A stretch of DNA of 64,000 nt from Brevundimonas sp. GTDB taxonomy: Bacteria; Pseudomonadota; Alphaproteobacteria; Caulobacterales; Caulobacteraceae. Shown here one piece after another: positions 19,974 to 29,074 of the stretch. Each line of letters opens with the position of its first letter. Position 1 is the stretch's first letter. The position numbers were made by a program, and so were the translations under genes. Below the pieces are notes generated by a model. That model had not been told where the DNA came from. It made no database searches and saw only the letters and a program-made list of their open reading frames with translations. The stretch is from positions 209,787 to 273,786 of the forward strand of contig NZ_DASYWO010000004.1 in NCBI RefSeq assembly GCF_035935935.1, read 5' to 3'.

Positions 19974-20789
19974 ATGACCGCCGTCGCCGCCCCGCGCGTC
20001 CCGTCCGACCTCGCCTTCGCCCGCGATCTGGCGCGCGGGGCGGCGGGCGCCCTGATCTTCGCCGTGCCGCTGCTGATGACCATGGAGATGTGGGCCCTGG
20101 GCCATGCCATGGACCGGCCGCGGCTGGCGCTGTTCGTGGCCTCGGGCCTGCCGCTGCTGTTCGGCCTGTCGTGGTCGGTCGGCCTGCGCGAGGGCGGCGG
20201 CTGGCTGGACCACGCGCTGGAGACCCTGACCGCCGTGGCGCTGGGCTTTCTCGTCTCCACCGCGGTGCTCTTCGGCGTGGGGGCGCTCAGGCTGGACCTT
20301 CCCGTCGACGCCTGGCTGGGGCAGGCGGCGCTGCAGAGCGTGCCGGCGGGCATCGGCGCCCTTCTGGCGCGTCGACAGCTGGGCGCCTCGCGCGCGGGGG
20401 AACCTCGGGGCTATGCCGCCGAACTGTTCCTGATGATCGTCGGCGCCCTGTTCCTCGCGCTGAACATGGCCCCGACGGAGGAGATGCTCCTCATCGCATG
20501 GCGGCTGAACGCGGTGCAGAGCGTCGCCCTGCTGGCCGCGACCCTCGGCCTGATGCACGCCTTCGTCTACGGCGTCGGCTTCGCCGGGCAGCACGCGCAC
20601 GACCGCCCCTTGCTGGCCTTCTTCCACTTCACGGTCGCGGGCTACGGGCTGGTGCTGCTGACCTGCCTCTACGTTCTGTGGCTGCTGGGCCGCACGGACG
20701 GGCAGGGCGCGCACGAGATCGCTGCGCTGGCCGTCGTGCTCGGCTTTCCCGCCGGTCTGGGGGCCGCCGCCGCGCGGCTGCTGGTCTGA
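19974..20789 (+). CDS. polytopic membrane protein (resembles the TIGR02587 family)
   Basis: Start at MTAVAAPRV. Contains the FAVPLLMTMEMW motif. Translationally coupled to the next ORF by an ATGA overlap. Confidence 0.6.
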   Translation: MTAVAAPRVPSDLAFARDLARGAAGALIFAVPLLMTMEMWALGHAMDRPRLALFVASGLPLLFGLSWSVGLREGGGWLDHALETLTAVALGFLVSTAVLFGVGALRLDLPVDAWLGQAALQSVPAGIGALLARRQLGASRAGEPRGYAAELFLMIVGALFLALNMAPTEEMLLIAWRLNAVQSVALLAATLGLMHAFVYGVGFAGQHAHDRPLLAFFHFTVAGYGLVLLTCLYVLWLLGRTDGQGAHEIAALAVVLGFPAGLGAAAARLLV

Positions 20790-21178
20790 TGGCCCAGGCT
20801 CCGAAGTCCAGGGCGCGCGCGAAGTCGAAGTCGCCCCCGCCCCGCCCGCCGGTGCTGGAGTGGATCATGGCCGCGCTGGGCGCCGCCGTGATCCTGCTGA
20901 CCCTGACCCTGCTGCTGAAGGACGCCAAGGGCGAGGAAACGCCGCCCCAGCTGACCGCCCACGTCGTCGAGGCGCGCCCCCTGGCCGACGGCTGGGCGGC
21001 CGAGGTCGAGGTCGTCAACCGCGGCGACGAGACGGCCGCCCGCGCCCGCGTCGCCCTGATGGGGTCCGAGGCCGAGACCGACTACGTCCCCGGCCATGGC
21101 AAGGCGCGCCTGACCCTGATCGTCCCCGCCGATCCCGCCGCGACGTTGCCGGTGGTGAAGGGGTGGTCGGAGCCCTGA
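20789..21178 (+). CDS. single-TM protein (resembles the TIGR02588 family partner)
   Basis: MAQAPKSRARAKSKSPPPRPPVLEWIMAALGAAVILLTLTLLL..., 129 aa. The ATG overlaps the previous TGA at 20787-20791. Confidence 0.55.
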   Translation: MAQAPKSRARAKSKSPPPRPPVLEWIMAALGAAVILLTLTLLLKDAKGEETPPQLTAHVVEARPLADGWAAEVEVVNRGDETAARARVALMGSEAETDYVPGHGKARLTLIVPADPAATLPVVKGWSEP

Positions 21179-21189
21179 CGCTCCGCTAT

Positions 21190-23266
<2,077 letters not shown>

Positions 23267-23277
23267 CGAGGGCCAGC

Positions 23278-23441
23278 TTGACAACCACAGGTGCGCTGTC
23301 CAAGCTTAGCCTATGTGCGAGGTGCGCTAGCCAGCGTCGGGAAAATCACTTTGCAGGCCTGCAGCGAGATTAGCGGGTCGCCCTTTCGCAAAAGAAGCCC
23401 TGACTTGCCGACGCTGGTGCCTCCACATTGGGGGCTTGAGA
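23278..23441 (+). ncRNA. candidate structured leader / RT-associated non-coding RNA
   Basis: The non-coding gap between thiC and the RT has a TTGACA hexamer at 23278-23283. AGGTGCGCT repeats directly at 23289-23297 and 23320-23328. A perfect 10-bp inverted repeat, CCAGCGTCGG (23331-23340) and CCGACGCTGG (23408-23417), encloses 67 nt that includes the palindrome TGCAGGCCTGCA (23352-23363). Function is inferred, not shown. Confidence 0.3.
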
Positions 23442-25010
23442 ATGCAAGAACTCATAGAAGAAGCGCTTATCCGTAAGGCGAGATCGGCACTACGTCGGCA
23501 TCACGCGGGAATAGCGACGAGCCGAAAGTACGCCTCCAAGTATTCCAAGCGGACCGGCCAGGCTCCCGGCGCTCCCCGCATTACAGACCCGAGTGCTTGG
23601 GGCCTGCATCCCCACTTCGATCCAAAATACTGCATCAAGCACTCGCGTTTCTTGAGTCGCACGATCTGGCGCAAAATTCAGGCTGGGGAGTATGAACCAA
23701 CCCCCGCTGTCCAATACGAAATTGAAAAGCCGGGCGGAGGCGCTCGCGTCATCATGGCGTTCTCCATTCCAGACGCTGCTGTTGCAAATGTCGTCCATCG
23801 CGCCGCTACGCGAAGAAACATCAATATTCTTTCGAGCAACAGCTTTGCTTACCGTCCAGACAAGTCCGTATTTGATGCTATCATAAACCTCAAGCGCTCC
23901 GTTACTGGGAGTAAAGTTTATGTCGTCCAGTACGACTTTTCGAAGTTCTTCGATACTATCGATCAGGACTACATCTCGAAAATCATATCGGATCGGCGCA
24001 AATTTATCCTGTCCAACGCGGAGCGCACCGTCGCAAAGGCGTTCTTGCGTCACCGCTTTGCTCGCGTAGCAGATTACCCCGGCGGAACGTTTGAACAGCG
24101 AAGCGCGGGCGTTCCTCAAGGCAGCTCGATGTCCTTGTTCTTGTCAAACGCCACTGGCCACGCCCTCGACCTTTCACTGGAACAAATGAACGGGTCGTTT
24201 GTCCGTTTCGCGGATGACGTCGTCGCCGTCACTCAAACGTTCACTGATGCATTGCGTGTGGCCGAAGAGTTCCGCGCGCACTGCGCCGCGGCAGGCCTGC
24301 GGATCAACCGGGAAAAATCTCCCGGCATCCGCCTGTTAGGCGGAAGCAGTGAGCTTGAGAAACGCATCATGGCAATAGACGATGACGATATTGCCGACCT
24401 TAAAACAATTGATCATATCGACTATCTAGGACACCGAATCTGCCACGATAGGATTGAACTCCCTGACAAATCACTGCGGCGGATCAAGAAACGGATTTCA
24501 TCCATAGTCCACAAACACCTCTTTCTTTACACGAGAGGCCCACACGGCATCATGGGTCAAAACAGGATTGGCGCGGATTTCTTCGATTGGGATTTCGTCA
24601 CCTGCTTGAACGAGATCAGGAAATACATCTATGGCGGTCTCGGCGAGCGCCAGATCCAGCAGTTCCTGCTTCACAACCAGAAGCCACCTGGAATACGAGG
24701 GCTGATGGGCTTCATGCCCCTACTCACGAACCGTAGGCAGCTTGAGCAACTGGATGGCTGGCTTCTGAACATGCTGGTCCGTGCTCAGCGAGAGAGAGCC
24801 CGAGTAGCGACTGCTCATGGGTATCCGCTCCAACGACTCACCAGATCGCAGATCGTTGACGGTTCTTGGTATACATTTGGCGCAATCGCACAGGACTCTG
24901 CGGCCCCCAGTTTCGTGCGCGCTTGGCGCGCTGCACGGAAGTTTTATCTTAGATACGGCCTAATGGGGATCGAACCGCCTGCTTACTACTCGATGATCGA
25001 CTACCAGTAG
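23442..25010 (+). CDS. stand-alone reverse transcriptase (group-II-like/UG-DRT-like, unclassified)
   Basis: RT motifs occur in order: EIEKPGGGARVIMAFSIPDAAVANVV (1), YRPDKS (2), DFSKFFDTI (3), GVPQGSSMSLFLSN (4), FVRFADDVV (5, nt 24207-24218 = FADD), LRINREKS (6), IDYLGHRI (7). A ~190-aa helical C-terminal extension follows. GGGGG lies 8 nt upstream of ATG 23442. Sampled G+C is 43-50%, against ~65% in thiC. Confidence 0.9.
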   Translation: MQELIEEALIRKARSALRRHHAGIATSRKYASKYSKRTGQAPGAPRITDPSAWGLHPHFDPKYCIKHSRFLSRTIWRKIQAGEYEPTPAVQYEIEKPGGGARVIMAFSIPDAAVANVVHRAATRRNINILSSNSFAYRPDKSVFDAIINLKRSVTGSKVYVVQYDFSKFFDTIDQDYISKIISDRRKFILSNAERTVAKAFLRHRFARVADYPGGTFEQRSAGVPQGSSMSLFLSNATGHALDLSLEQMNGSFVRFADDVVAVTQTFTDALRVAEEFRAHCAAAGLRINREKSPGIRLLGGSSELEKRIMAIDDDDIADLKTIDHIDYLGHRICHDRIELPDKSLRRIKKRISSIVHKHLFLYTRGPHGIMGQNRIGADFFDWDFVTCLNEIRKYIYGGLGERQIQQFLLHNQKPPGIRGLMGFMPLLTNRRQLEQLDGWLLNMLVRAQRERARVATAHGYPLQRLTRSQIVDGSWYTFGAIAQDSAAPSFVRAWRAARKFYLRYGLMGIEPPAYYSMIDYQ

Positions 25011-25025
25011 CGGCAGTGCAGGAGC

Positions 25026-25235
25026 TCAGCGGCGCTGGAACGCCTTTCTCACCGCCGACCTCGCCATATCGACGGATTGTTTTCGGACCGAAGCTCGGAT
25101 TTCGGACATGGGTCCGAACGCTTCGCCGCAGTTCGAACAGGACGCCTGATCATCGTCGTCGACCGAGAGACTGGTCGGCTGATCGCACGCCGTGCACCGG
25201 AACGTGGCTGTGATTTCTCCGAGAGGTTTTGTCAT
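25026..25235 (-). CDS. small zinc-ribbon protein (69 aa)
   Basis: MTKPLGEITATFRCTACDQPTSLSVDDDDQASCSNCGEAFGP... with a CxxC-N16-CxxC pattern and a basic C-terminus. AGGAG (complement of 25244-25248) lies 8 nt upstream of the ATG. Convergent with the RT, with a 15-bp gap. Confidence 0.55.
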   Translation of the reverse strand: MTKPLGEITATFRCTACDQPTSLSVDDDDQASCSNCGEAFGPMSEIRASVRKQSVDMARSAVRKAFQRR

Positions 25236-25325
25236 TCGACTCGCTCCTGCTGAGATTCATCACACCACCGCTCGGGGCGATGTTCAACCTTTGTTCTGCA
25301 AAATTGGTATTAGGGCGCGACGCCC

Positions 25326-26015
25326 TCACCCCTCCCCTGCCATCCCCCGCAACGCCTCCTCGAACACCGCCGCCGGCTGGCCGCCGCTGATCAGCCACTT
25401 CCCCTCCACCACCACGGCGGGCACGCCGGTGATGCCGCGGGCGCGCCACAGGGCTTCTTCGGCGCGCACGTCGGCGGCGTACAGGTCGTCGGCCAGGACC
25501 TCGACGGCCCTGGCCCGGTCCAGCCCCGCCGCCGCGGCCGCGTCGGCCAGGACCTCGGGGTCGGTCAGGCGGCGCCCCTCGGTGAAGTGGGCGCGGAACA
25601 GGGCCTCCTTCAGCGCCCTCTGAGCCTCCGGCCCCACCGTCCCGGCCCACCACAGTAGCCGGTGGGCGTCGAAGGTGTTCCAGATGCGGCTGTCCTCGCC
25701 CATCCGCATCTGAAACCCGGGCCAGGCCTCGGCCGCGCGTTCGGTGATCATGGCGCGGTTGGCCGCCGACTGCTGCGGCGTCGATCCGTATTTGCGGCCG
25801 ACATGCTCGACGATGTTCTCGCCCTCCGGCGCCATCTGCGGGTTCAGCTCGAACGGGCGGAAGGTGATCTCGGCCCCGATCCCCTCGGCCTTCAGCCGCG
25901 CCAGCGCCGCCTCCAGCCCGCCCAGCCCCACCACGCACCACGGGCAGACCACGTCCGAGACGAAGTCGATCTTCAGGGTGCGGGCGGCGGGGGCGGGGGG
26001 CGCGGCGTCGGTCAT
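25326..26015 (-). CDS. DsbA family oxidoreductase (FrnE-like)
   Basis: DVVCPWCVVG thioredoxin-fold CxxC motif. 229 aa. Confidence 0.85.
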   Translation of the reverse strand: MTDAAPPAPAARTLKIDFVSDVVCPWCVVGLGGLEAALARLKAEGIGAEITFRPFELNPQMAPEGENIVEHVGRKYGSTPQQSAANRAMITERAAEAWPGFQMRMGEDSRIWNTFDAHRLLWWAGTVGPEAQRALKEALFRAHFTEGRRLTDPEVLADAAAAAGLDRARAVEVLADDLYAADVRAEEALWRARGITGVPAVVVEGKWLISGGQPAAVFEEALRGMAGEG

Positions 26016-26042
26016 GGCGGACAGATGGGGGCAGGCGACGGC

Positions 26043-26441
26043 TCAGGAAAGCTCCGCCCGCAGCCGCGCCTCCAGCGCCGCGCGGTCTTTCGTCTCGCAT
26101 TCCCAGACCGTGACCACCTTCAGCCCCCTGGCCGTCAACGCCGCCTCCACCCGCGCGTCGCGCGCCTGATTGCGCGCGAACTTGGCGGCCCAGTGCTCCG
26201 CGTTGTGCACCGGGGTGGTGGTCCGCCTGCAGCCGTGGCGATGCCAGAAGCAGCCGTGGACCAGCACGGCCCACCCCTGCGTCCGGTTGGCGAAGTCCGG
26301 CGTGCCCGGCAGGGCGCGCACGTGCTTGCGGTACTTCACCCCGATCGCGCGCAGCGCCTCGGCCGTGCGCGTCTCCGGCGTGGTGCCGGTCGAGCGCACG
26401 CGGCTCATGGTGCGGCTGGTCTGGGCGTTCAGCGGCTGCAT
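26043..26441 (-). CDS. vsr: very short patch repair endonuclease
   Basis: SRTMSRVRSTGTTPE...LPGTPDFA...VLVHGCFWHRH...W..KF..N..RD: classic Vsr motifs. 132 aa. Confidence 0.85.
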   Translation of the reverse strand: MQPLNAQTSRTMSRVRSTGTTPETRTAEALRAIGVKYRKHVRALPGTPDFANRTQGWAVLVHGCFWHRHGCRRTTTPVHNAEHWAAKFARNQARDARVEAALTARGLKVVTVWECETKDRAALEARLRAELS

Positions 26442-26482
26442 CGGAAGGCTGAGCGATTCCGGAAATGGTGCGTTCCGCCCTC

Positions 26483-29074
26483 ATGGCGAAGGGCGAACTG
26501 AAGACCTATCAGGCCAAGCGGCGCTTCGACGAGACGCCGGAGCCGAAGGGAAAGAAGGGCAGGGCGGGCAAGGCCGGCGGGTCCTATCTGATCCAGCGCC
26601 ACGCGGCCACGCGCCTGCACTGGGACTTCCGCATCGAGGTCGACGGAGTGCTGAAATCCTGGGCCGTGACCAAGGCCCCCTCCCGCGACCCCGCGGTCAA
26701 GCGGCTGGCGGTGGAGGTCGAGGATCATCCGCTGGACTATGGCGGGTTCGAGGGGACCATCCCGTCGGGCAACTACGGCGCCGGCACGGTCCAGATGTGG
26801 GACCGCGGCACGTGGGAACCCCAGCACCCGGAGACCCTGTCGGACGACTGGGCGCGCGGCTCCATCAAGATGACCCTGTCGGGCGAGCGCCTGCAGGGCG
26901 GCTGGGCCCTGGTCCGGCTGAAGAGCGATCGGGGAAAACCGTCCAAACGGGCGAACTGGCTGCTGATCAAGGAGAAGGACGAGCATGCCGTGCCGGGCGA
27001 GGGCGACGCCAATCTGGAGATCGACGCCAGCGTGACCACCGGCCGCTCGCTGGCCGAGATCGCGGAGGGGAAGAAGAAGTGGACCTCGTCGAAGCCCGTG
27101 GCCCGGAAGGCTCCGAAGACGCCGGAGCCGAAGGCGCGCGAGGCGAAGCTGGGCAAGCCCCCCGCCTTCGTCCCGATCCAGCTCTGCAAGGTGGCCGACC
27201 ACCCGCCGTCCGGCGCCGGCTGGGCGCACGAGATCAAGTTCGACGGCTACCGCGTGCAGGTCTCGACCGGCGGCGGCCAGGCAAGGGTCTACACCCGCCG
27301 CGGCCACGACTGGTCGGCGAAGTTTCCGGAACTGGCCGCCGACGCCGCGTCCTGGCCCGACGGCATCGTGGACGGCGAGGTCTGCGCCCTGGACGCCGAC
27401 CACATGCCCGACTTCTCGGCCCTGCAGGCCGCCATCGGCGACGGGCGGACGGCGGGTCTGGTCTTCTTCGCCTTCGACCTGCTGGCCGAGGGGACCGAGG
27501 ACCTGCGCAAACTGGCCCTTTCGCACCGCAAGGCGCGGCTTCAGGCCCATCTGGACCGCGTGCCGAAGGCGGCCGGCAAGCGCGTCCGCTACGTCGACCA
27601 TTTCGCCACCACCGGTCAGGCCGTGCTGGACAGCGCCTGCCGCATGGATCTGGAAGGCGTCATCTCCAAGAAGCTGGACGCGCCCTACGCCGCGGGCCGG
27701 TCGGGCGCCTGGCTGAAGTCCAAGTGCCGCGGTCGCGACGAGGTGGTGATCGGCGGCTGGTCGTCCGAGGGCGGCACGCGCTTCCGCTCCCTGCTGGTCG
27801 GCGTGCGCGAGGCGGGCGGCCTGCGCTCGCTGGGCCGGGTCGGCACCGGCTACGCCCAGCCCCTGCTCAAGACCCTGCTGCCGCCGCTCAAGGCCGCCGC
27901 TTCGGACACCAGCCCCTTCGCCGGCAAGGGGGCGCCGCGGGGCGGCCGCGACGTCCACTGGGTGAAGCCGGTGCTGGTCGCCGAAATCGAACACGGGGGC
28001 TACACCGAGAGCGGCACCCTGCGTCATGCCGCCTACAAGGGCCTGCGCGAGGACAAGGCCGCCGCCGAGGTGACCGAGCGGCCGCAGGCGCCCACGCCCG
28101 CCGGGAAGTCAGGAAAACCTGACAGGGTCGCCGCCGCCCTGCACGTGCCCGGCGAGCCCGCGCCCGGCGGAAAAAGGGGCAAGCTGATCGTCGCCGGCGT
28201 GTCGATCTCCAACCCCGACAAGATCCTGTGGCCCGCCGTGGACGACCGCCCGGCGATCACCAAGGGCGAGCTGGTCCGCTATTACGAAATGGCCGTCGAC
28301 CGCATCCTGCCGCACGTCGCCGACCGCCCCGTCTCCATCATCCGCGCGCCCGACGGCATCGCCGGCCAGAAATTCTTCCAGCGCCACGCCATGCCCGGCT
28401 CCAACCCCCGGCTGAAGCTGATGGACGTGAAGGAGCGCGCGCCCTACGTCGCCGTGTCGGACGTCGGGGGTCTGGTCGCCATCGGCCAGTCCGGCGGGCT
28501 GGAGCTGCATCCCTGGGGCTGCGCCCCTGACGATCCGGAGACGCCGGAGCAGATCACCTTCGACCTCGACCCCGACGAGGGCCTCGACTTCGCCGACGTC
28601 ATCGCCGCCGCGAAGGTGATGAAGAAGGAGCTCGAGGCGCTGGGCCTCAACCCCTTCGTCAAGACCACGGGGGGCAAGGGCCTGCACGTCGTCGTGCCGA
28701 TCCGGACCGACGCCCGCAGCCGCATCGAATGGGATCAGTGCAAGGCCTTCGCCAAGGAGGTCTGCGAGCGCGTCCGCAGGGACCAGCCCGACCGCTTCAC
28801 CACCACCATCGCCAAGAAGGCGCGAGGCGGGAAGATCTTCCTCGACTACCTGCGCAACGGCCGCATGGCGACCGCCGTCGCCCCCTGGTCGCCCCGCGCG
28901 CGGCCGGGCGCGGGCGTCGCCTTCCCGCTGTCGTGGGGGCAGGTCAAATCCGGCCTGGACCCGCGCGCCTTCACCCTCCACGACGCCGCCGCCCTCCTCA
29001 AGAAACCCGACCCCTGGCCCGACTTCCGCGCGGGCGCGGTCAGCCTCAGGCCGATCCTGAAGAAGGTGCTCTAG
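26483..29074 (+). CDS. ligD: DNA ligase D (phosphoesterase-ligase-polymerase)
   Basis: N-terminal PE domain (YLIQRHAATRLHWDFRIE), ligase adenylation motif EIKFDGYR, and a C-terminal LigD polymerase/primase domain. Start is either 26465 or 26483. Confidence 0.9.
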   Translation: MAKGELKTYQAKRRFDETPEPKGKKGRAGKAGGSYLIQRHAATRLHWDFRIEVDGVLKSWAVTKAPSRDPAVKRLAVEVEDHPLDYGGFEGTIPSGNYGAGTVQMWDRGTWEPQHPETLSDDWARGSIKMTLSGERLQGGWALVRLKSDRGKPSKRANWLLIKEKDEHAVPGEGDANLEIDASVTTGRSLAEIAEGKKKWTSSKPVARKAPKTPEPKAREAKLGKPPAFVPIQLCKVADHPPSGAGWAHEIKFDGYRVQVSTGGGQARVYTRRGHDWSAKFPELAADAASWPDGIVDGEVCALDADHMPDFSALQAAIGDGRTAGLVFFAFDLLAEGTEDLRKLALSHRKARLQAHLDRVPKAAGKRVRYVDHFATTGQAVLDSACRMDLEGVISKKLDAPYAAGRSGAWLKSKCRGRDEVVIGGWSSEGGTRFRSLLVGVREAGGLRSLGRVGTGYAQPLLKTLLPPLKAAASDTSPFAGKGAPRGGRDVHWVKPVLVAEIEHGGYTESGTLRHAAYKGLREDKAAAEVTERPQAPTPAGKSGKPDRVAAALHVPGEPAPGGKRGKLIVAGVSISNPDKILWPAVDDRPAITKGELVRYYEMAVDRILPHVADRPVSIIRAPDGIAGQKFFQRHAMPGSNPRLKLMDVKERAPYVAVSDVGGLVAIGQSGGLELHPWGCAPDDPETPEQITFDLDPDEGLDFADVIAAAKVMKKELEALGLNPFVKTTGGKGLHVVVPIRTDARSRIEWDQCKAFAKEVCERVRRDQPDRFTTTIAKKARGGKIFLDYLRNGRMATAVAPWSPRARPGAGVAFPLSWGQVKSGLDPRAFTLHDAAALLKKPDPWPDFRAGAVSLRPILKKVL

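Follow-up and report, generated by a model that had tools for sequence, protein, structure and literature searches.

What occupies the space between the thiC gene and a reverse transcriptase (RT) gene on contig NZ_DASYWO010000004.1 of Brevundimonas sp.? In the 64,000-nt stretch analyzed here (positions 209,787 to 273,786 of the contig; referred to as the window), thiC (21269-23266; Pfam ThiC_Rad_SAM) ends at position 23266 and the RT open reading frame (ORF) occupies 23442-25010 of the + strand, which leaves a gap of 175 nt. Inspection of this sequence alone (the original prediction) had suggested that the gap contains an RT-linked scaffold or template RNA with a terminal stem, resembling those of retrons and of DRT2/DRT9-type systems. 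Comparison with related loci upheld an RT-linked non-coding RNA (ncRNA) of the DRT9 kind; a retron msr-msd and a DRT2-type template did not hold. We conclude that the gap very probably encodes the ncRNA of a DRT9-type (UG28) anti-phage system, in which RNA and RT are the two parts. Judged from its sequence, this is a DRT9-family scaffold/template, an RNA of known kind, in a compact alphaproteobacterial variant without the canonical run of four uridines (U4).

The reverse transcriptase and its upstream RNA

The RT belongs to the UG28/DRT9 clade. The PADLOC model Drt9 matched it with an E value of 1.5e-153 and a score of 510 bits over profile positions 1-486 of 488, and the next models of the DRT group (UG26, UG17, Drt3a, Drt2 and UG39) reached 57-71 bits (63 for Drt2, 68 for RT_UG17). 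Scores with the Drt2 and Drt3 models lay far below their cut-offs. Pfam identified an RVT_1 domain, and residues 3-507 matched the solved DRT9 RT chains 9ioa, 9iob, 9nlv, 9nlx, 9vku and 9vma at E=1e-60. For defence, UG28/DRT9 depends on an ncRNA, encoded directly 5′ of the RT gene, as well as on the RT (PMC9226505). That ncRNA, 188 nt up to the RT start with six stem-loops and about 150 nt when mature, is both scaffold and template: a U4 tract in an irregular loop (U123-126 or U124-127, according to the numbering of the paper) templates poly-dA of kilobase length, synthesis is primed by tyrosines of the C-terminal tail of the RT, and the enzyme is active as a hexamer bridged by RNA (two studies of 2025; PMC12483538, PMC12489045). 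A 2026 preprint extends the picture: Class 2 DRTs hold a short template between two stems that the RT anchors, and R420 of the DRT9 RT contacts the 5′ stem (bioRxiv 10.64898/2026.06.29.735271).

The corresponding residues were located in the window RT. Its tail (...PPAYYSMIDYQ*) carries the tyrosines Y515, Y516 and Y521, of which Y515 and Y516 are invariant in 25 aligned alphaproteobacterial homologues and correspond to Y496/Y498 of the E. coli DRT9 RT (PMC12489045). R447, likewise invariant among homologues, aligns with R420 of the Sen DRT9 RT. The catalytic motif is FADD (F256-D259; nt 24207-24218) and not YADD; it is invariant in the 25 homologues and both aspartates are retained. By homology, the tail tyrosines, R447 and FADD support protein-primed, RNA-templated synthesis. 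Early stops were seen in the RT frame of two related loci, L009 (3001-3519) and L018 (3001-3099); these are maybe frameshifted pseudogenes and maybe artefacts of an offset start.

If the locus were a retron, its inverted repeat would be the a1/a2 stem of an msr-msd and the product branched multicopy single-stranded DNA (msDNA). A terminal inverted repeat does lie just 5′ of the RT gene, and the RT does give weak matches to NCBIfam retron models; their scores, however, are 46.6 and 24.7 bits where the curated cut-offs stand at 235 and 450, and Drt9 gives 510 bits. The layout of the RNA described below fits DRT9, and no conserved effector gene is found nearby. We consider a retron highly improbable.

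The signal that could be extracted from the gap as a single sequence was modest. Among 1000 sequences simulated from a first-order Markov model of the gap, 2.2% contained a perfect inverted repeat of at least 10 bp and 10% a direct repeat of at least 9 nt, and repeats of 9-10 nt are common within the surrounding 2.2 kb. It is the comparative data that decide which features are real. A protein search returned 392 homologues at E <=1e-10 among 8000 candidates scored. Scans of genomes and metagenomes provided about 120 DRT9-like loci, nearly all alphaproteobacterial, 40 of which carry the RNA type of the window (type A); look-ups of the closest proteins (75-94% identical) added eight loci. Regions upstream of the RT were visibly conserved across loci. 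RNAalifold, applied to a plain MAFFT alignment of 27 RNAs, predicted three helices with compensatory changes in 15 of 20 pairs.

A covariance model, R1, was built from 23 sequences. Only one match was obtained in the 64-kb window (23313-23422, 110 bits, E=3e-24), ending 20 nt before the RT start, and it was still the single match with filters off. R1 recovered 40 loci (39 other than the window) at E values from 1e-23 to 1e-7, in each case immediately 5′ of the RT, so that the type-A RNA was found in 40/40 type-A loci. In an alignment of 44 sequences 93.8% of cells were paired, compared with 68.9% after shuffling, and none of 500 shuffles reached the observed value; pairing dropped to 32-45% when the partners were slid. 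Double-sided changes were present in 21 of the 22 pairs. The modelled pairs ranked top in scans of mutual information and of stacked pairs, which revealed no helices or pseudoknots beyond the three modelled helices. UUUGC/GCAAA and a UUCG-CAAA-CGAA mini-hairpin were tried as further candidates and rejected, being compatible with the alignment but devoid of compensatory changes. The RNA was placed on the RT (+) strand because G-U pairs are abundant.

Covariation across RT-homologue loci, which the original prediction had named as a check, was strongly positive for the terminal stem. This stem, P1 (helix 2), is 94.7% paired, with double-sided changes in all 10 modelled pairs. The 10-bp inverted repeat noticed earlier is part of it: the 5′ arm includes CCAGCGTCGG (23331-23340) and the 3′ arm includes CCGACGCTGG (23408-23417). 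The 5′ hairpin SL1 (helix 1) is 94.9% paired, and its pairs alternate between GC/AU/GU, CG/UG/UA/GC and GC/AU/CG. It is formed by GTGCG, which had been correctly pointed out at 23315-23319, and the second copy of AGGTGCGCT (23320-23328). The first copy of AGGTGCGCT is also present (23289-23297), but the direct repeat that the two had been taken to constitute is incidental: this copy lies in the non-conserved spacer of the promoter and is absent even from relatives 89-94% identical.

Double changes were found in 7/7 pairs of the internal hairpin, which has the highest mutual information of the alignment; its loop is often GNRA-like in relatives. Two structures proposed for the same region were not borne out. 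The palindrome TGCAGGCCTGCA does exist at 23352-23363 but is not a conserved pairing and must be regarded as incidental; the GGG-UCG-CCC mini-hairpin is, like the palindrome, an alternative pairing of the arms of the internal hairpin and received no support from covariation. A segment of this hairpin, GCAGGCCTGC (23353-23366), recurs within the RT ORF at 24287-24300 (13/14 nt) and there codes for A-G-L, a conserved part of AGLxIN; the recurrence is probably due to chance, because the ncRNA copy is not kept in relatives. The minimum free energy (MFE) fold of 23313-23441 gives all four helices listed in Table 1.

Table 1. Positions in the window of the ncRNA, its structural elements, the promoter and the RT gene
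Feature	Position	Strand	Basis or remark
-35 box TTGACA of the ncRNA/RT promoter	23278-23283	+	Conserved spacing
Putative weak -10 element, CAAGCT	23301-23306	+	Inferred from 17-nt spacing; CAAnnT or GACTTT in relatives
Conserved core, ~107 nt	23313-23419	+	R1; A23313 (predicted 5′ end) and G23419 invariant in 34/34
5′ hairpin SL1, GUGCG-AGG-UGCGC, 5 bp	23315-23319 with 23323-23327	+	Covarying pairs
Closing stem P1, 11 bp, long-range	23330-23340 with 23408-23418	+	Covariation, mutual information and stacking scans
5′ junction	23341-23355	+	Invariant U23346, A23348, C23349 and G23353 (UAC motif)
Internal hairpin, 7 bp, 10-nt loop	GGCCUGC 23356-23362 with GCGGGUC 23373-23379	+	Covariation
3′ junction, candidate template loop	23380-23407	+	Invariant G23394 and octamer CCCUGACU (23398-23405)
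Base after P1	23419	+	Invariant G
3′ hairpin GCCUCCA/UGGGGGC	23419-23425 with 23429-23435	+	MFE fold; lineage-specific
DRT9 (UG28) RT, 522 amino acids	23442-25010	+	PADLOC, Pfam RVT_1, PDB chain matches

The candidate template loop

To relate the window RNA to the characterized ones, the ncRNA of E. coli locus L152 was used as reference; this locus encodes WP_211092143.1, a protein listed in the Nature supplement, and nt 1 of the RNA was set at L152:1492. All published landmarks (U67, C94, A106, G114, U121, U124-127 and U131) fit this numbering, and the long-range stem of the E. coli RNA consists of nt 19-29 paired with 133-144. One layout is shared among L152, L071 (a viral contig, 78% identical) and the Bacillus and Hymenobacter plasmid loci: a 5′ hairpin, a long-range stem, UAC(C), internal hairpins, the template loop, a G and a terminator hairpin. 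The UAC(C) motif after the 5′ arm of P1 also occurs in the E. coli/Salmonella ncRNA and in alphaproteobacterial RNAs of a second type (type B).

The octamer CCCUGACU of the 3′ junction is present in 34/34 type-A RNAs and in most type-B RNAs, and in all type-A RNAs it contains a run of three to five C. Its position just 5′ of the 3′ arm of P1 is the site of the U124-U127 template in the E. coli/Salmonella ncRNA. Two alignments are possible: U124 may correspond to U23405, with the tract UUG running into P1, or U4 may correspond to CCCU at 23398-23401, as preferred by MAFFT. Under either alignment there is no homopolymeric U template in the window RNA, and the longest run of U in 23313-23441 is three.

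Several observations weigh against the assignment of the RNA to the DRT9 family. U4 is missing throughout: no run of at least four U exists anywhere in 33/34 type-A RNAs, and 7/34 have no run of even three. R1 gave no match at the right places on the E. coli, Salmonella-like, Bacillus and Hymenobacter ncRNAs, and homology to the characterized RNA consequently rests on architecture and short motifs. The window RNA has solely one internal hairpin, though in the solved complex the contacts within the oligomer run through SL4/SL5 (PMC12483538, PMC12489045). An Rfam scan of 20500-26500 with E values up to 10 produced no match in 23267-23441. The stability of the gap is unremarkable (MFE z-score of -0.91), and a promoter scan with the E. 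coli consensus did not call the TTGACA promoter, the -10 element being weak. The absence of U4 is the only point on which the element does not fit the family as defined in the literature. In SenDRT9 the loss of one U from U4 abolishes defence (PMC12483538); since U4 is absent here and SenDRT9 needs all four U, the product of the window system cannot be assumed to be poly-dA.

We searched every locus de novo for a long-range stem and compared the loops located just 5′ of the 3′ arm. These form a graded series: CUUACUUUUA(A/C)U in E. coli-like and Bacillus loci, GCUUUUACU in L125, CCCUUUACU in L103, CCCCUUACU in type B′, CCCUUUCUUUU in L017 and CCCUGACU in types A and B. Among related loci CUUUUACU, CCCUUUACU, CCCCUUACU and CCCUGACU occupy the same loop site. 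The type B/B′ loci (L013-L059 and L092-L125) come mostly from Rhodobacterales and Hyphomicrobiales, and their RTs are 36-42% identical to that of the window. They carry a second, larger RNA with GGCGUAGUAGCC, a closing stem of 11-12 bp, three internal hairpins and, immediately 5′ of the 3′ arm, CCCUGACU or CCCUUACU; R1 scored these RNAs at E values of only 0.2-0.8.

We put forward tentatively, and regard as rather doubtful, the idea that alphaproteobacterial DRT9 swapped poly-U for the invariant CCCUGACU loop and writes dG-containing repeats (poly-dG, AGGG-like or TCAG-like) and not poly-dA. Were it true, the DRT9 template tract would be an evolvable pyrimidine run, and the systems studied so far might be poor guides both to the trigger logic (a dATP surge from phage ribonucleotide reductase) and to the downstream toxicity of the product. 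DRT9 is now described as a maker of poly-dA from a "universally conserved" poly-U template. Here a large alphaproteobacterial clade has the same RT family, the candidate priming tyrosines and a parallel RNA architecture, with a minimal RNA of about 107 nt that lacks U4. Such a clade is a natural experiment on how template and product are each specified in this class of DNA-writing enzymes, and its compact RNA offers a smaller scaffold for engineering.

The loop was also considered as a rolling-circle template of the DRT2 kind, from which concatemeric complementary DNA (cDNA) encoding a stop-free effector gene would be made. In its favour, DRT2, the sister group of DRT9, has its genes arranged in a similar way (PMC12483538), and the loop in the window is indeed closed by a stem. 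Concatemers of 23341-23407, 23330-23418 and 23313-23418, however, carry stops in all three frames on both strands; the loop measures 67 nt and that of DRT2 about 120 nt, and the RT scored 63 bits with Drt2 against 510 with Drt9. A DRT2-like template is therefore very unlikely. The original prediction had the stem closing a 67-nt loop, but simple circularization of a template is not what the DRT9 analogy suggests: copying would be confined to a few nucleotides of the 3′ junction loop.

Transcript, proposed mechanism and genomic setting

The TTGACA hexamer at 23278-23283 had been proposed as a -35 element with exact coordinates, and the comparison supported it: TTGAC lies 28-30 nt 5′ of R1 position 1 in 36/40 related loci, and the spacer in between varies freely. 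The structured leader had been drawn from 23278. The RNA most likely starts at about 23313, the core being followed by the lineage-specific 3′ hairpin. No intrinsic terminator was found between the RNA and the RT ORF in the promoter/terminator scan. For this reason, and because the start codon of some relatives lies about 7 nt past P1, the RNA and the RT messenger RNA (mRNA) are probably parts of one primary transcript.

The 3′ hairpin covers the likely Shine-Dalgarno purines at 23430-23434. Close relatives have a 3′ hairpin of the CCUCC/GGAGG type with differing sequences, and other type-A loci have a terminator-like hairpin or nothing at this site. Strong terminator-like hairpins follow P1 in L077, L010, L072 and L001, the 3′ module of the RNA family being highly variable. 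In the type-A loci L079, L051, L081, L083 and L084 the RT start codon is about 7 nt past the 3′ arm of P1, and the ribosome-binding site must therefore overlap an ncRNA helix.

These features raise the question of whether the region could be only a cis-acting 5′ leader that governs translation or transcription of the RT gene, with no role as cofactor or template. The missing terminator, the sequestered ribosome-binding purines and the start codons close to P1 would all suit such a leader. It would not account for the conservation of CCCUGACU, UAC, G23394 and the 5′ hairpin, which are far from the ribosome-binding site and are kept across very different 3′ ends; moreover, the RT is a DRT9 enzyme, of a family that needs its upstream RNA (PMC9226505), and the layout parallels that of the solved DRT9 ncRNA. 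We judge an exclusively cis-acting leader to be improbable. The two roles are not mutually exclusive, and a leader function is possible in addition to partnership with the RT.

For the RNA as partner of the DRT9 RT, the following course of events can be proposed. Transcription would begin about 29 nt past TTGACA, near A23313, on the RT strand; the spacing is an observed one, and the start is inferred from it. The RNA would fold into the 5′ hairpin, the 11-bp long-range stem and one internal hairpin, the helices shown by covariation, with two conserved single-stranded junctions. By homology with the solved E. coli/Salmonella complexes, the RT encoded downstream would bind this RNA as a scaffold and form an RNA-bridged oligomer. 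On phage infection, a few nucleotides of the 3′ junction, beside the closing stem, would be copied over and over to give a long single-stranded DNA of repeats, primed from a tyrosine of the C-terminal tail of the RT, and the outcome would be abortive infection. With CCCUGACU followed by UUG in place of U4 in the template loop, the product may not be pure poly-dA. The 3′ hairpin, by occluding the ribosome-binding purines, would probably keep translation of the RT low relative to the RNA.

The cassette lies in a low-GC island (about 23270-25250; 50-60% GC compared with about 70% in the flanks) that begins just past the thiC stop and contains only the ncRNA and the RT. A thiC-like gene end also precedes the cassette in L142, L143, L144, L145, L146 and L148, where the RT is 75-89% identical and the gap measures 166-174 nt, and likewise in L080; it does not in the remaining loci with the same RNA. 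Among fetched loci with enough upstream sequence, thiC is directly upstream only in L142, L143, L145, L148 and L080. In L017 and L036 it is farther off or on the opposite strand, and no thiC match was detected in the upstream sequence examined for the other type-A loci with the same RNA. Since the cassette sits in varied genomic contexts, the RNA goes with the RT and not with thiC.

This bears on the possibility that the conserved sequence is a 3′ untranslated region or terminator of thiC, or the end of a mobile element, and no partner of the RT. Its location directly past the thiC stop, at the edge of the low-GC island, and the same placement in close relatives could be read in this way. The varied contexts, with the other type-A loci showing no thiC match in the sequence examined, and a covariation pattern that denotes a folded RNA on the RT strand make this explanation extremely unlikely. 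In the annotation of the window the space between thiC and the RT gene is thus not empty: it very probably holds the partner that the RT cannot do without, in a defence system of two parts inserted beside thiC.

Upstream, thiC is preceded in the ordinary arrangement by a thiamine pyrophosphate (TPP) riboswitch (21196-21300; Rfam RF00059, 63.5 bits, above the gathering score), the only real match near the gap in the Rfam scan. Neither the close relatives nor the further loci of the clade that were sampled showed a conserved partner gene beside the RT, and the 444-amino-acid ORF downstream, on the opposite strand, had no Pfam or NCBIfam match. In one close relative (L146/L147; RT 79% identical) the RT stop is followed after 4 nt by an ORF (1841-2350) that matches AAA_33 and, weakly, Zeta_toxin; the neighbours of the RT are different in other relatives and in the window.

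Comparison with known systems

Retrons resemble the locus in that an inverted repeat flanks a structured RNA beside an RT. The window RT, however, belongs to a different clade and has no effector gene, and by homology priming is expected from the protein and not from a 2′-OH. DRT2 (UG2) also has a structured ncRNA 5′ of an RT-only protein, and part of this RNA is reverse-transcribed repeatedly. It uses a rolling-circle template of about 120 nt that yields a stop-free gene and is primed from the RNA 3′ end, whereas the concatenated loop of the window has stops in every frame and the RT is of another UG group.

DRT10 (UG17), a telomerase-like system that makes tandem repeats, is comparable as a Class 2 UG RT with C-terminal protein priming and an ncRNA that presents a short template loop between two stems. 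DRT10 loops are not homopolymeric, and their repeats are set by an A-B-A′ pattern (bioRxiv 10.1101/2025.10.16.682844, 10.64898/2026.06.29.735271). Possible patterns of this form, such as CU-GA-CU and CCCU...CCCU, can be picked out in the window loop. The differences are that the window RT scored 68 bits on UG17 and 510 on Drt9, that the cassette is without a SLATT gene, and that DRT10 template loops are poorly conserved, whereas the loop of the window type is invariant. A SLATT-domain gene was met in L151, on the Thioclava sp. plasmid NZ_CP149928.1, where it is annotated from 2159 and overlaps the RT gene (664-2172). The RT of L151 is only 32% identical to the Salmonella/E. coli RT, and the upstream RNA is a different one, closed by GCCAGUAAGC/GCUUACUGGC; L151 is possibly a DRT9 with an associated SLATT gene, or else a system resembling DRT10.

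The characterized DRT9 systems, SenDRT9 and EcoDRT9 (PDB 9nlv, 9ioa and 9vma), differ from the window in several ways. The core of the window RNA is about 107 nt long, compared with about 147 nt in theirs (188 nt if counted as far as the RT start); a single internal hairpin takes the place of three (SL3-SL5), and CCCUGACU followed by UUG is found where they have U4. Its 3′ hairpin sequesters the ribosome-binding site, whereas theirs (SL6) is a U-tailed terminator. The RTs are about 30% identical, with FADD for YADD in the window, and the covariance model did not link the two kinds of RNA. What they have in common lies in the layout. In both, the RNA is encoded immediately 5′ of a UG28 RT on the same strand, and its elements follow in the same order: a 5′ hairpin, the long-range stem, UAC, one or more internal hairpins, the loop 5′ of the 3′ arm, a G past the stem and then a 3′ hairpin before the RT start. 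The window RT likewise shares the tyrosines of the C-terminal tail and the arginine equivalent to R420.

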